Shown here: piece by piece, positions 16,107 through 20,442 of the stretch | Layout of the letters: each line of letters begins with the position of its first letter | How positions within the stretch are numbered: position 1 is the first letter of the stretch | Source of the DNA: an uncultured delta proteobacterium | GTDB taxonomy: Bacteria > Desulfobacterota > Binatia > UBA9968 | Direction of reading: 5' to 3' | Assembly: GCA_963745835.1 (NCBI GenBank) | Contig: CAVUZH010000014.1 | Span: 256,001 to 320,000, forward strand | DNA length: 64,000 bases | The notes under the pieces: model-generated | Databases searched by the model: none | The model's input: the letters and a program-made list of their open reading frames with translations, nothing else | Told to the model about the DNA's origin: nothing | Position numbers and translations under genes: made by a program

Positions 16107-17408
16107 ATGTTTGACAAAATCACGGCTCGATCCAAGGGATTTTTTTACGGCTGGTGGATGGTGGCCGTGGGTTGCGGCATGCGCATGCTCGGCGGCGGCT
16201 TTCATCTCTACGGCTTTACGATTTTTTTCTTGCCGATCACCCAAGAGTTGGGCTTGACTCGAGCGGCGACTTCCCTGGTCTTCTCGTTAGCCCGGGCTGA
16301 AGGCGCCATCGAAGGGCCGTTGGCGGGTTACTTAATCGATCGCTTCGGGCCGCGCCCGATGATGCTGGCGGGGGTGATCTTGTCAGGCGTAGGTTACATG
16401 CTGCTCGCCGGAGTCGAAACCTATTATGGCTTGATCGCGATCTATCTGGGCGTGATCTCATTATCCTTCTCGGCCGGCTTCATGCATTCTCCCATGGTCC
16501 TCGCCAATAGCTGGTTCATCCGGCGCAGGGCCTTGGCGATGACCTTGATCAGCAGCTCCATCGGTATCGGCGGTACTCTGATCACACCACTGCTGGCCTT
16601 CAGCGTCCAGACCTGGGGTTGGCGTTATGGAGCTTTTTTGTCCGGCCTCGGATTGATCCTGATCGGCGTGCCTGTGGCGCTCCTGGTCAAACGTTCACCC
16701 GAAAGCATGGGCTTGGCGCCCGACGGTGCCGCGCCGGAAGAGAAAGACGCGACGGCGGTCAAAACCACACGTAAAGCTAACCGGCACGTTAATGAGGATG
16801 AAATTGAGTTCACTCTTCGGCAAGCGATGCGCACCGCCGCCTTCTGGATCATGATCCTGGCCACCACCACGCGAGTTGGCGTGTTCAATGCGATTACGGT
16901 TCACTTCGTGCCGATCATGGTCTGGAAAGGCGCGAGCGAGCAGCGCGCCGCGGCGCTGCTGGCGACGATGGCGCTGATGAGTTTACCATCGCATTTGCTG
17001 GTCGGCTGGATTGCGGATCATGTCAGCAAACCACGGCTGATGGCGGCTTGCATGGGCGTGGGCGCGCTGTCGATTGCCTTCTTGGCCTATGGCGAAGGAG
17101 AATGGTCACTCTGGATGTTCGTTCTACTCTTTACGATCATGGAAGCAATCTTTCCGGTCGGCTGGGCAACCGTAGGCGATTTTTTTGGCCGAAAATCTTT
17201 CGCGACGATCCGCGGCACGATGAGTTTTTTCTACTTATGGGGACCTGCGCTGGGGCCTGTCATCACCGGCGCGATCTATGATCGATATCAAAGTTATGCG
17301 CCGATGATGTCGGTGTATATCGCGCTGTCGGTGATCGCGGGCTGCCTCTATGCAATGATGGCCCCGCCGAAGCGCGCTAACCTGTCGGCTGCTGAATCAG
17401 CCTCATAG
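16107..17408 (+). CDS. MFS transporter (paralog A1)
   Basis: FFYGWWMV, GYLIDRFGPR, GWIADHVSK, GDFFGRKSFATIRG; about 12 TM helices. Confidence 0.9.
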   Translation: MFDKITARSKGFFYGWWMVAVGCGMRMLGGGFHLYGFTIFFLPITQELGLTRAATSLVFSLARAEGAIEGPLAGYLIDRFGPRPMMLAGVILSGVGYMLLAGVETYYGLIAIYLGVISLSFSAGFMHSPMVLANSWFIRRRALAMTLISSSIGIGGTLITPLLAFSVQTWGWRYGAFLSGLGLILIGVPVALLVKRSPESMGLAPDGAAPEEKDATAVKTTRKANRHVNEDEIEFTLRQAMRTAAFWIMILATTTRVGVFNAITVHFVPIMVWKGASEQRAAALLATMALMSLPSHLLVGWIADHVSKPRLMAACMGVGALSIAFLAYGEGEWSLWMFVLLFTIMEAIFPVGWATVGDFFGRKSFATIRGTMSFFYLWGPALGPVITGAIYDRYQSYAPMMSVYIALSVIAGCLYAMMAPPKRANLSAAESAS

Positions 17409-17469
17409 GTTTCGCTGCACTCGTTCGGATCGCTTCAACGTACTGAAGCGTACGCCTTATATTACTGTA

Positions 17470-17650
17470 GTCATACTCGATGATAGATATTGCATTGTCG
17501 TCCAAGAAGCTTGCTGGTTAGAGGACCTTACGTACGCGATTCCGTTAGAGGATCTAGCTGAGACTGTCCCGACCAGCAAAAGAACGGAGTCAAAAGTTCT
17601 ATGGAAAGTTGTCCCGTCGAGGACCGATATAAGGCTAACGTTCCGTTCAC
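17470..17650 (+). ncRNA. IS110 bridge RNA (5' stem-loop, target-binding loop, donor-binding loop); ends approximate
   Basis: Guides CGTACGC (17531-37) and AGCTGAG (17556-62) match the target. ATGGAAAGT (17601-09) and ATATAAG (17627-33) match the donor junction. Each pair lies in an internal loop closed by stems. Confidence 0.88.
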
Positions 17651-17690
17651 AGCTATTGGAGTAAAGTAAGCAAAGAAGGAGGACAACAAA

Positions 17691-18917
17691 GTGCCACGAT
17701 ATTATCTGGGAGTAGATTGGGCAGACCGAGTACACCAGCTCTACGGTGGCGACGAGAACGGGATAAAGGTAATGGAGATGAAAGTCCAAGAGAACCCTGA
17801 AGGGCTGGCGGAGTTGGCGCATTGGCTCAATCAGAGCAGAGCTGAGCAGGTGGAGCTGTGGGCGGCGATCGAGAAGCCGCACGGGCGCATTGTGGATTTT
17901 CTTTTGGATCATGGGGTAGTGGTTTATCCGGTCAATCCCAAGGTCTTGGATCGTGCTCGGGACCGGTTTCGCATGAGTCAATCCAAGAGCGACCCCTTTG
18001 ACGCTTGGGTACTGTCGGATTTTCTTCGGACCGACCACGGTCACCTCAGGCCCCTTCGGCCAAGCTCTGAGCAGGCCCAGGAGCTTAAGCTGCTTACCCG
18101 GGATCAGCAAAGAATGGTGCGTCACAAAACGCGTTTGCTCAATCAGCTCAAGTTCACTCTCAAGGAGTACTATCCTCGACCGGTGGAGGTTTTTGGGGAT
18201 CTGGAGGCTCGTATAGCAGTAGACTTTCTCAAGCAGTATTCGACGCCAACGGCGCTCTCGAAGCTTAGCCGTAAGCAGTGGAGCCGATTTGCCCAGCAGC
18301 ATCCTCATCTTGGTAAAGCACGCAGTGCCAAGCTGTGGGAGGAGCTGAAAAAGCCGCAACTTGTGGTTCCCGATCACGTCGTCAGAGCCAAGGCGCAGTT
18401 GCTCGAAGTGCTGCTCGATCAGCTTGAGGCTTCGCTGCGAAGCATAGAGAAGTACAGCGACAAGGTCGAACGTTTTTTCGCCTCTACACCGGCCGCTAGG
18501 CTTGTGGAGAAGCTGCCGGGAGGGAAAAGCGGAACGTTGCTGCCGGCCCTTTGGGCCGAGCTGGGAGATGCCCCAGCTCGATGGGAATCCTTTAAGCACC
18601 TTCAGGCCGAAGCGGGAGCAGTCCCGGTGACCAAATCGAGTGGCAAGAGTCGCATTGTTGAGTTTCGGTTTTCTTGTAACAAACAATTGCGCTACGCCGT
18701 CTACTGGTTTGCTTTTATCTCGATAAACCGCAGCCAGTGGGCCAAGGCCTTTTATCGAGACCAACGGGCCAGAGGACACAGCCATCCCCAAGCACTTCGG
18801 GCTTTGGGAGCGAAGTGGTTGAAAATTATTTTTGTGCTGTGGAGAGATCATAAACCTTATGACGAAACCCATCACTTGGCCAACATTGCACGACAGAAAA
18901 TGCGCCAGGCAGCGTGA
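17691..18917 (+). CDS. IS110-family DEDD recombinase/transposase
   Basis: D9 (LGVDWA), E61 (IEKP), D101/D104 (KSDPFDA); C-terminal AGAVPVTKSSGKS catalytic-Ser motif; GTG start after AGGAGG. Confidence 0.95.
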   Translation: MPRYYLGVDWADRVHQLYGGDENGIKVMEMKVQENPEGLAELAHWLNQSRAEQVELWAAIEKPHGRIVDFLLDHGVVVYPVNPKVLDRARDRFRMSQSKSDPFDAWVLSDFLRTDHGHLRPLRPSSEQAQELKLLTRDQQRMVRHKTRLLNQLKFTLKEYYPRPVEVFGDLEARIAVDFLKQYSTPTALSKLSRKQWSRFAQQHPHLGKARSAKLWEELKKPQLVVPDHVVRAKAQLLEVLLDQLEASLRSIEKYSDKVERFFASTPAARLVEKLPGGKSGTLLPALWAELGDAPARWESFKHLQAEAGAVPVTKSSGKSRIVEFRFSCNKQLRYAVYWFAFISINRSQWAKAFYRDQRARGHSHPQALRALGAKWLKIIFVLWRDHKPYDETHHLANIARQKMRQAA

Positions 18918-18934
18918 AATAAAATCGATGGGGC

Positions 18935-18957
18935 TTGACAGGGCTCATAGAAAGTCT
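18935..18957 (+). promoter_or_regulatory. -35 half of the IS110 circle-junction promoter
   Basis: TTGACA (18935-40) + 15 nt + CT joined to TATATT (17458-63) gives TTGACA-N17-TATATT. Confidence 0.85.
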
Positions 18958-19049
18958 CAGCTCATCCAACTTCGCGCGCCTTGCCTCTGAGGTCTTTTGA
19001 GCAGCCTCAGTCAAGCTCCCAGGACCTACTCTCGTCAGGTAGATTCATT

Positions 19050-20442
19050 GGTAGCGTCAAGAGTTGTGTGTAAAATCTTCGACGGGGTTTATACTCCAGT
19101 TAGTATTCAAGTGATGAAACACAGCGAAGACGATTCTTTGTAAACTCTGGGTATGAGCCATCACCCCCATGGGGCGAGTTCTTCGTCTGACTTCTCGAAA
19201 GGTCCGTTCGATTAAGTTGGTGGTCCTTAAGCGGCTCCACAGCTTAGAGTTCTTGATGGCAAAGAAGCTCAGCAGCTGATCGAAGTCTTTCTTTAAGCAA
19301 GCCACCGCTCTGGGATAAGCCTTTCTCCAACGTGAGGAAAATCGCCAGTAAGCCTGAGCCGCTTCTCGGCGATTGGCCGCATGGCTGATCCGGTTTAAAG
19401 CCGTCTTGACCGCCGGCTGGTCTTTCTTTTTCACTTTATCTAAGACGTTTCTGGTTTTGTGCGCCCAGCAGCGCTGTAGCAGGGGCTTGGGATAAATGAT
19501 CTGTAAGGCGTGATGCAGTCCCGTGCCGCCATCAGTAGCCATCAACTGGCACTGGCTCCCTTTGAGTCCTCTTCTGTAGAGATCGGCTAAGAAAGCTTCC
19601 CAGCAGGCCGCCGACTCACTGGCGGCCGGGTAAAAGTCGATCATTTCATGATGGCCTTCGACGGTGATGCCGAAGGCGCAAAGGAGGATTTTCTTTTGCA
19701 CCTTAAGCGCTCCCTTGCTCTTTAACACCACACCATCGAAGAACAGATAGCGGTAGCGATCCTGGAGCGAGCGGTCGTGATAACGACTGACCTCTTGATC
19801 CAACCCCCGCGCAATGCGTGAAATGGTCGAGGCCGAGACCTTCTCGCCCAAAACCGGCGCCAGTACCGCGGCAGCTTTGCGGGTGGACAGTCCCAAACAA
19901 AAACACGCCAACAGAACCCTATCCACTGAGCGGCAGCGCCGGGCATAGCGCTCAAAGAGCTTGGTCGGAAAACCGCCTTTGCGGCGGCGCGGCACTAACA
20001 GTTCTAAATCACCCATCTCGGTCAGCAGATGCCTTATGTAATACCCATTGCGGTAGTCCGGTCGATCCAATGCATGCTCGTAACGAGACAGCCCTAAGTA
20101 CTCGGCCATATCTTCTTCGAGCTGCTTCTGCACCAGTTCTTTGAGCACCTGGAGCGCCATCGGTTTAAAGTCTCCCTCCCAATCAAAACCGTTGATCTCA
20201 TTAAGAGCTCGCGATACATTTCTTGACGTTGCTTGATCGAGCAGCATCGGGGTGCCCTCCTCTTGTTTGTGTTGGTTGCACAACTCTGGAGTTAGCACCC
20301 CTTCTATTTTTTCCCAATCTAAAAATGACTTAGGCTTTTCCCTTAACCACCTCCCAATCCTCTCTTCTCGCCCAAATGTGAAAGTCATTTTCTCCCATCC
20401 TCTCTCCCCAATTCGAATTTACACACAGATCCATACATCACC
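19050..20442 (-). mobile_element. IS256-family insertion sequence, complete
   Basis: 8-bp TSD GATTCATT at 19042-49 and 20443-50; imperfect ~28-bp IRs GGTAGCGTCAAGAGTTGTGTGTAAAATC / GGTGATGTATGGATCTGTGTGTAAATTC. Confidence 0.92.
19057..20247 (-). CDS. IS256 (Mutator-like) DDE transposase
   Basis: YRNGYY.R.L.T.MG.L.L.VPR, LGLSTR, YLFFDG, ATDGGTGL, QRCWAHKTRN, RTTNLIER. Start moved to ATG 20247 after GAGGAGG. Confidence 0.93.
   Translation of the reverse strand: MLLDQATSRNVSRALNEINGFDWEGDFKPMALQVLKELVQKQLEEDMAEYLGLSRYEHALDRPDYRNGYYIRHLLTEMGDLELLVPRRRKGGFPTKLFERYARRCRSVDRVLLACFCLGLSTRKAAAVLAPVLGEKVSASTISRIARGLDQEVSRYHDRSLQDRYRYLFFDGVVLKSKGALKVQKKILLCAFGITVEGHHEMIDFYPAASESAACWEAFLADLYRRGLKGSQCQLMATDGGTGLHHALQIIYPKPLLQRCWAHKTRNVLDKVKKKDQPAVKTALNRISHAANRREAAQAYWRFSSRWRKAYPRAVACLKKDFDQLLSFFAIKNSKLWSRLRTTNLIERTFREVRRRTRPMGVMAHTQSLQRIVFAVFHHLNTNWSINPVEDFTHNS

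Follow-up and report, generated by a model that had tools for sequence, protein, structure and literature searches.

A distant relative of the IS621 bridge-RNA system in a Binatia genome: an IS110-group element and homologs whose target guides follow their own insertion sites

The stretch of DNA analysed here (hereafter the window) comprises 64,000 nucleotides (nt) of contig CAVUZH010000014.1, positions 256,001 to 320,000, from an uncultured delta proteobacterium of the Binatia (assembly GCA_963745835.1), and contains at 17456-18957 a 1500-bp insertion sequence (IS) of the IS110 type with CT at either end. Counting one CT, the element occupies 17458-18957 on the plus strand, as do all the features described for it below. 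Its body begins with TATATT (17458-17463), and a non-coding left end of 233 nt (17458-17690) leads to the gene of a 408-amino-acid recombinase (17691-18917), behind which a right end of just 40 nt (18918-18957), core CT included, completes the element. No long terminal inverted repeats were found by eye on the element sequence. A long non-coding left end coding for an RNA, combined with a short right end, is the layout described for the IS110 group (Durrant et al. 2024, PMC11208160). The left end of the present element holds four short segments matching its two flanks and its two joined ends, placed within two stem-closed loops, and in related elements the segments of the first loop change together with the flanks. 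These features are best explained by an IS110-group insertion sequence whose recombination is guided by a bridge RNA, with a probability of roughly 0.92.

The boundaries of the element were defined by comparing filled and empty sites. The host genome (7.28 Mb in 25 contigs) contains three full copies at 99-100% identity, along with one 90-bp left-end fragment; flanks and orientation are identical in all three copies, corresponding to site-specific, oriented insertion at a 2-bp core. On the left, the target CGTACGC (LT, 17449-17455) precedes the left copy of the core CT (17456-17457), which filled and empty sites delimit and which is present once in the latter. On the right, the other copy of the core (18956-18957), recognised from filled sites and homologs, is followed by the right target CAGCT (RT, 18958-18962), and both targets recur in the flanks of the three copies and in the empty sites. 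An earlier reading of the sequence, referred to here as the first-pass annotation, had claimed that removal of the element restores its target. This is what the genome contains: the uninterrupted 14-nt target occurs as 16 exact and 19 one-mismatch copies, compared with 0.07 expected by composition. All 35 empty sites lie within one repeat family and in one orientation, and each exact empty site has a single CT. Because the empty sites and the three copies agree, the element boundaries are exact to the shared CT.

The recombinase gene starts with GTG, 8 nt upstream of which lies an AGGAGG ribosome-binding site (17677-17682). Its product is matched by PF01548 (DEDD_Tnp_IS110) over residues 6-162 (E 7.3e-31) and by PF02371 (Transposase_20) over residues 271-356 (E 2e-10), and it passes the NCBIfam model NF033542, 'IS110 family RNA-guided transposase', by a small margin (149.1 bits vs. 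a cut-off of 140). Across 60 aligned sequences, the recombinase and 59 relatives at 28-78% identity, there is no variation at E61 and D101, and conservation at D9, D104, S317 and G318 is 90% or higher. In IS621 the DEDD and Ser-Gly residues are D11, E60, D102, D105, S241 and G242 (Hiraizumi et al. 2024, PMC11208158), to which D9, E61, D101 and D104 together with S317-G318 correspond as DEDD motif and Ser-Gly loop. The AlphaFold2 model of the protein (pLDDT 95.1, pTM 0.87) retrieved only IS621 or ISCro4 chains among its ten best Foldseek matches (E 2.4e-12 to 4.3e-11, TM 0.70-0.73 on target), the best being IS621 8wt9_A (E 2.4e-12, TM 0.71 on target) and ISCro4 9t56_A (TM 0.73), followed in the ranking by TIGR-TasR and Nop5. 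Identity to IS621 and ISCro4 in the structural alignment is 17-19%, and both are matched weakly by a phmmer sequence search (IS621 E 4.4e-08, over a partial alignment; ISCro4 E 7.4e-09). In the model, the approximately 80 residues that exceed the length of IS621 are mainly short helices between two long helices, at about 163-227. The recombinase had been described as intact in the first-pass annotation, and its open reading frame (ORF) is intact in two of the three genomic copies. Its family is large, with 8668 cluster representatives at E <= 0.001; near relatives at 70-100% identity come from soil-type metagenomes, where they are named just 'transposase', and the closest named genome records are metagenome-assembled genomes (MAGs) labelled Candidatus Binatia or Deltaproteobacteria.

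The guides of bridge RNAs differ by side: those on the left are complementary to the bottom strand, and so carry top-strand sequence, and those on the right are complementary to the top strand itself (Durrant et al. 2024, PMC11208160). The left end of the present element can be read by this rule throughout. A target-binding loop (17511-17579) is closed by TTGCTGGT (17511-17518) with ACCAGCAA (17572-17579) and by GGAC (17523-17526) with GTCC (17566-17569). It contains the left target guide (LTG) CGTACGC (17531-17537), which is identical to LT and stops before the core; an inner hairpin (17538-17554) of GATTC (17538-17542) with GGATC (17550-17554), including one G-U pair; and the right target guide (RTG) AGCTGAG (17556-17562), the reverse complement of 18956-18962 (CT plus CAGCT). 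A donor-binding loop follows (17582-17648), with an outer stem of GAACGGA (17582-17588) and TCCGTTC (17642-17648) and an inner stem of GTT (17596-17598) and AAC (17637-17639). Within it, the left donor guide (LDG) ATGGAAAGT (17601-17609) agrees in eight of nine bases with the left donor ATAGAAAGT at the right end of the element (18947-18955, found in the sequence and by motif script), the remaining base being an A>G change kept as a G-T wobble. After an inner hairpin (17611-17624) of GTCC (17611-17614) and GGAC (17621-17624), the right donor guide (RDG) ATATAAG (17627-17633) is the reverse complement of 17456-17462 (CT plus TATAT). Where the core reads CT, the bases after LTG are GA and those after LDG are TG; RTG and RDG include the core. 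The four guide motifs, the loops and their closing stems had all been proposed in the first-pass annotation, and a script located each of them at the positions given there. The two-loop left end is also that of the bispecific, IS621-type bridge-RNA architecture which the annotation had assigned to the element (Durrant et al. 2024, PMC11208160).

Two further short motifs lie directly 3' of the right guides. In the target loop, ACT (17563-17565) is complementary to the donor AGT (18953-18955) and is present in 51 of 52 elements compared; in the donor loop, GC (17634-17635) is complementary to the target GC (17454-17455) and is present in all 47 elements parsed there. Both are candidate handshake guides, whose role would follow the arrangement described for IS621 (Hiraizumi et al. 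2024, PMC11208158).

A consensus fold of 15 left ends returned both loops, their closing stems and their inner hairpins. Over 42 distinct sequences and 35 specified pairs, 95.4% of cells were standard-paired, compared with 24.9-51.4% when the partners were slid against each other. Identical sequences had been merged for this alignment, and two loci (L083 and L110) were dropped, as no donor-loop end was found in them. In the target-binding loop, helix 1 is 97.1% paired with three compensatory pairs and helix 2, the inner hairpin, 91.0% with one; in the donor-binding loop, pairing reaches 96.4% in helix 3 and 88.1% in helix 4, the latter with two compensatory pairs, and helix 5, the inner hairpin, is 100% paired with one. 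Changes on both sides thus occur in seven pairs, a number reached by none of 500 shuffles. The left-end scaffold is conserved at 84% mean column identity, which makes the covariation limited, yet consistent. An alternative pairing suggested by RNAalifold, GUU at 17596-17598 with the GGC after RDG, was passed over for GUU/AAC, which has two compensatory pairs. Folding energy was dropped as evidence, the whole left end and its 5' part both being no better than shuffles, and because single-sequence energies match those of shuffles, the structure rests on the comparison of homologs. A 5' stem of 17478-17484 with 17494-17500, drawn in the first-pass annotation, was not supported. It is one of two registers, since the minimum-energy fold of the 5' region pairs 17479-17486 with 17495-17502; the local fold of this weak candidate stem-loop (17478-17502) reaches -6.3 kcal/mol with z -0.32, and 70 of 200 shuffles fold as well. 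Across nine sequences, the folding energies of the 5' part range from z -0.32 to +1.03, and the consensus fold of the aligned left ends contains no conserved stem at this place.

The relation between guides and flanks was compared across homologous elements, drawn from 29 loci in species genomes and the best 80 of 238 loci in metagenomes. In total, 99 loci were examined and 62 could be parsed at both ends, giving 52 distinct guide/flank sets after removal of ten duplicate rows. The other 37 were left out because the target loop (21), the left end (9) or the right end (4) was not found, or because the left flank was shorter than 13 nt (3). All 62 parsed homologs have CT at both ends. The 52 elements contain 36 target-loop guide pairs and 43 targets, and on average LTG matches its cognate target in 7.69 of 9 bases and RTG in 4.73 of 5 non-core bases. 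The summed guide-target match was 646, compared with 417.8 +/- 13.1 (maximum 477) when targets were permuted, and none of 5000 permutations reached the observed value; in a first set of 14 loci, none of 20,000 did. In the donor loop, RDG is ATATAAG in 47 of 47 parsed elements, and LDG is ATAGAAAGT in 44 and ATGGAAAGT in three. Donor-loop guides and element ends are therefore nearly constant while the target-loop guides follow their own flanks, as the covariation check suggested beforehand would have it for the target side. Judging from these sequences, the pattern is that expected of a naturally reprogrammed target loop combined with a donor loop tied to the element's own ends.

Close relatives illustrate this at the level of single bases. 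Locus L040, whose protein is 85% identical, differs at two places in its guides, and both differences are matched by its flanks AAGTACGC and CCGCT, with LTG fitting in 9/9 and RTG in 5/5 bases. L038 and L039 (97% identity) have the guides of L040 and flanks that fit the changed bases, with one other mismatch per guide (8/9 and 4/5). A 95-96% identical copy in contigs of sequencing runs X15 and X16 has the same C>A change at 17531, and its flanks end in ...AGTACGC (in X16, ...AAGTACGC). In L018 and L019 (65% protein identity), unrelated sequence stands in place of the left end and of the left portion of the target loop, and the retained right target guide still matches the right flank. L013 and L014, from one MAG, represent one element variant at two sites, where the left guide matches in 8/9 and 6/9 bases, respectively; the second site may be a natural off-target or half-matched insertion.

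The position of LTG relative to the core varies among the 52 natural pairs: in 10 it stops short of the core, in 26 it extends over one core base and in 8 over both, while 3 pairs are ambiguous and 5 poorly matched. The loop length is constant at 10-11 nt. The RNA scaffold is near-invariant, LTG slides by 0, 1 or 2 bases and reaches both core bases in just 8 of 52 pairs, and LDG never covers the core. In 49 of 52 targets, the core is preceded by C, opposite the fixed G that follows RDG. These observations raise the possibility, which we regard as tentative and on balance doubtful, that the long IS110 recombinases of this soil clade (about 408 amino acids) read the core dinucleotide differently from IS621. 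If so, core recognition would rest on the right guides and on a fixed handshake G that requires C before the core, and the clade would offer a second and simpler rule for programming, as well as a bridge recombinase that is orthogonal. In that case, a ready-made data set on reprogramming would also exist in the 36 target-loop variants that nature has placed on a single scaffold.

A sigma-70 promoter is rebuilt across the joined ends of IS621 (Durrant et al. 2024, PMC11208160), and a comparable motif is obtained here. When right and left ends are joined at the core, TTGACA (18935-18940), a candidate -35 box, stands 17 nt before TATATT (17458-17463), the candidate -10 box. This arrangement was found in 15 of 18 rows; among the others, one has an 18-nt spacer and two have no left end. 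By analogy, this junction promoter may be used by the element. The element or a part of it was found in 20 of 24 runs listed, which are soil, rhizosphere and ice metagenomes or metatranscriptomes, and 6 of these 20 are RNA. Contigs of RNA libraries from two studies contain related copies, and among the four runs compared at this level (X15, X16, X18 and X1), one X16 contig spans 17468-18963. Some contigs join 17455 to 18956 and thereby skip 1500 bases. Joints skipping 1500-1510 bases were considered as excision events and rejected, being most simply other, empty copies of the repeat.

A mechanism can be proposed from these features and from what is described for IS621. By analogy with the latter, the element would be excised as a circle, in which the CT core would link the right end to the left and the sigma-70-type promoter (TTGACA, 17-nt spacer, TATATT) would arise. 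This promoter would drive an RNA of about 180 nt from the left end, probably with the recombinase mRNA behind it. The RNA is predicted to fold into two stem-closed internal loops, the second of which would carry the guides for the joined ends ATAGAAAGT-CT-TATAT. Recombinase dimers, presumably bound to each loop, would bring target and donor together, and the serine and the DEDD site of the partner subunit may then cut beside the CT core and exchange strands, so that the element would land in one orientation. The natural target lies within the approximately 125-bp repeat, of which the host genome has about 170 copies.

Several observations weigh against bridge-RNA-guided movement of this element and have to be set against the evidence above. 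A search of 17000-19400 against Rfam 15 returned no family at E <= 1, the family being either not in Rfam 15 or too distant, and the single-sequence folding energy of the whole left end (z -0.87) is no better than that of shuffles. LTG has 7 nt without the core and LDG also lacks it, whereas in IS621 the core is included in all four guide pairings; the orthologs vary in this respect (Durrant et al. 2024, PMC11208160), and core pairing by all four guides is an IS621 feature, not a definition of the family. In 5 of 52 natural pairs, LTG matches in fewer than 7 of 9 bases (e.g., 3/9 in L012), which may reflect off-target insertions or assembly chimeras. The homologs are related and many targets are C-rich, which leaves some of the 52 pairs dependent on one another. 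The contigs from RNA libraries span the entire element, show no discrete left-end RNA and may be DNA carry-over. No right-end-to-left-end circle joint was found in the contigs of X15, X16, X18 and X1, which drop rare forms and, as contigs, are silent on circles and on the ends, level and strand of RNA. Stretches of the element left uncovered in X18 and X1 are equally uninformative. Finally, the copy at C16:89929-91430 (L003) has a 1-bp deletion, equivalent to window position 17917, that frameshifts the recombinase gene. Some of these points would fit a true bridge-RNA element in a lineage that no longer moves, that is, a recently immobilised relic, e.g., one in which the left guides lost core pairing and LDG has a wobble, or one silenced by the host. 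This alternative is unlikely, although beyond the one frameshifted copy in three, the core-free LTG of just 7 bases and the unseen circle joint, it could draw on the 90-bp left-end remnant at C14:580170-580259 and on an LDG that differs from the ATAGAAAGT form of 44 of 47 parsed relatives. However, the recombinase ORFs of the window and C3 copies are intact with two amino-acid differences between them, and 17456-17701, the whole RNA region included, is identical in all three copies, a pattern that points to recent copying. In addition, 10 of the 52 natural elements use the same core-free register and still sit at matching targets, the A>G change in LDG preserves a G-T wobble, and 16 perfect empty targets are still available.

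Two other explanations deny a guide RNA altogether. The internal copies of flanks and ends could act as DNA, as sub-terminal sites read by the protein or used in strand pairing, and the covariation of segments with flanks cannot by itself separate RNA from DNA, nor do the RNA-library contigs show a transcript. This is very improbable, because the segments lie in loops closed by stems with seven compensatory pairs, as expected of a folded single strand. Moreover, the protein fold is closest to two recombinases whose solved structures include bridge RNA, the protein scores above the cut-off of the NCBIfam model for RNA-guided IS110 transposases, and the conserved promoter motif points into the segment. 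Chance similarity in an ordinary IS110 left end would be conceivable for motifs this short (7-9 nt), each of which turns up in 1-10% of shuffles. When 17458-17690 was shuffled 100,000 times with dinucleotides preserved, the motifs were present singly in 986, 2098, 9681 and 2745 shuffles, and any two together in just 579; multiplying the single rates gives about 5e-7, even before right order and loops are required. Together with the fact that the same positions follow the flanks in 52 elements, beyond any of the 5000 permutations, this excludes a chance origin of the four matches, and the probability left to that explanation as a whole is negligible. The element is regarded as a genuine IS110-group bridge-RNA element, one that is probably still mobile, and the interpretation given in the first-pass annotation was supported in each part open to computation.

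The target of the element lies in a dispersed repeat of approximately 125 bp with imperfect inverted ends (about 18 bp) and internal hairpins. In the host genome it has 168 nhmmer matches spread over 20 contigs, and 143 of these matches are nearly full length. The element divides one copy into 17387-17458 (model positions 6-77) and 18952-19007 (model positions 71-126), as given by the nhmmer matches; the left half proper is 17387-17455, where the flanks of the three copies align, and the right half is 18952-19007. By appearance, the repeat looks like a miniature inverted-repeat transposable element (MITE) or a unit similar to repetitive extragenic palindromic (REP) sequences, and it serves as the landing pad of the IS110 element. 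Within the target, two inverted repeats that cannot form at the same time, CGCTTCA/TGAAGCG and CGTAC/GTACG, lie at 17430-17455, reminiscent of the stem-loop reported for the ISPpu10 target. Of the two, CGTAC/GTACG overlaps the left target, and since CGTACG is palindromic, the left target guide could pair with either strand there.

Among the copies in the host genome, the one on C16 has the same RNA region as the intact copies and could still be moved in trans. The solo left-end remnant on C14 (L004) comprises the first 90 bp of the element, to just past the left target guide. It lies within a repeat copy whose left target has one mismatch, and the sequence resumes at CATCG of the repeat, from which it follows that a deletion removed the remainder of the element together with 5 bp of the right target. 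The contamination of the genome bin is given as 9.33%; copies of the element and of the repeat family are found on many contigs, fitting one organism. Upstream of the element, a gene for a major facilitator superfamily (MFS) transporter ends at 17408. Downstream, approximately 50 bp past the right half of the repeat, a Mutator/IS256-type transposase of 443 amino acids (PF00872, E 1.4e-87) is encoded on the minus strand at 19057-20388, and an inverted-repeat search with default settings found no terminal inverted repeat pair around this gene. Beyond the host genome, a sample of 401 genomes of the phylum, its own included, contained two genomes matching at E <= 1e-60, a count that is not evidence of rarity, because IS copies are often unassembled in draft genomes. 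A DNA search of a plasmid collection with the element gave no match, and the protein search of the same collection gave only relatives at up to 36% identity, all annotated as IS110 family transposases.

Comparison with described systems places the element close to IS621 of E. coli in its mode of action and far from it in sequence. As described for IS621, the protein combines a RuvC-like DEDD domain, a coiled coil and a Tnp domain with a Ser-Gly loop, and the core is CT. The RNA likewise lies in a long left end, the target loop preceding the donor loop, with the same strand rule for the guides; at the handshake positions, the bases that follow each right guide on its 3' side fit the opposite partner; and the joined ends of the present element would form a candidate promoter where IS621 rebuilds one. 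In contrast to the published description of IS621, the recombinase has 408 instead of 326 amino acids, with 17-19% identity in the structural alignment, LTG has 7 nt, and LTG and LDG do not contain the core. IS621 inserts into REP sequences, and in the present case, too, the natural target lies within a dispersed genomic repeat. ISPpu9 of Pseudomonas putida reportedly is also an IS110 element that inserts into REP sequences. ISPpu10 of the same species inserts into REP sequences as well (preprint 10.64898/2026.03.19.712850). According to that account, it shares with the element described here the many identical intergenic repeat copies serving as targets and an inverted repeat that lies immediately 5' of the left target and overlaps it, known here from the sequence; unlike the ISPpu10 target, the repeat is a unit of approximately 125 bp with inverted ends and not a classical REP.

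ISCro4 (IS622) of Citrobacter rodentium is 88% identical to IS621 and belongs to the IS621-like clade, and the 72 orthologs which the same study screened came from the IS621-like clade in its broader sense (Perry et al. 2025 preprint). The present element has the fold of ISCro4 (PDB 9t56; TM 0.73 on target) and the same two-loop RNA logic, but it lies far outside that clade. It works like IS621, yet is not a member of the IS621-like clade. With the IS1111 group, it shares the recombinase family and an RNA-guided choice of target. The guide RNA of that group is named seekRNA. In the description of the IS1111 group, the RNA is coded in the right end and the sub-terminal inverted repeats are longer (Durrant et al. 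2024, PMC11208160), whereas here a left end of 233 nt holds the RNA region and just 40 nt make up the right end. A literature search joining 'IS110' and 'Binatia' returned no paper; ISfinder and the supplementary ortholog tables of Durrant et al. 2024 and Perry et al. 2025 lay outside this search.

The bridge-RNA architecture was published in 2024, and thousands of orthologs have been predicted (Durrant et al. 2024, PMC11208160). The element of the window is a distant new relative of the IS621 system within a mechanism class known since that year, and it opens no new question; its differences in core register and length are variations within the known scheme. Its value lies in being a bridge-RNA element that can be read fully from sequence, including target, donor, core, handshake bases and junction promoter, and in adding a well-documented ortholog at a large distance from the IS621 clade, on which the bench work has been done. 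Among its relatives, a single RNA scaffold is combined with 36 swaps of the target guides, which constitutes natural evidence for programmability and makes them a useful starting set in the search for orthogonal bridge recombinases. For the host genome, the system accounts for three insertions and one remnant in the approximately 125-bp repeat, and it points to 16 further potential landing pads.

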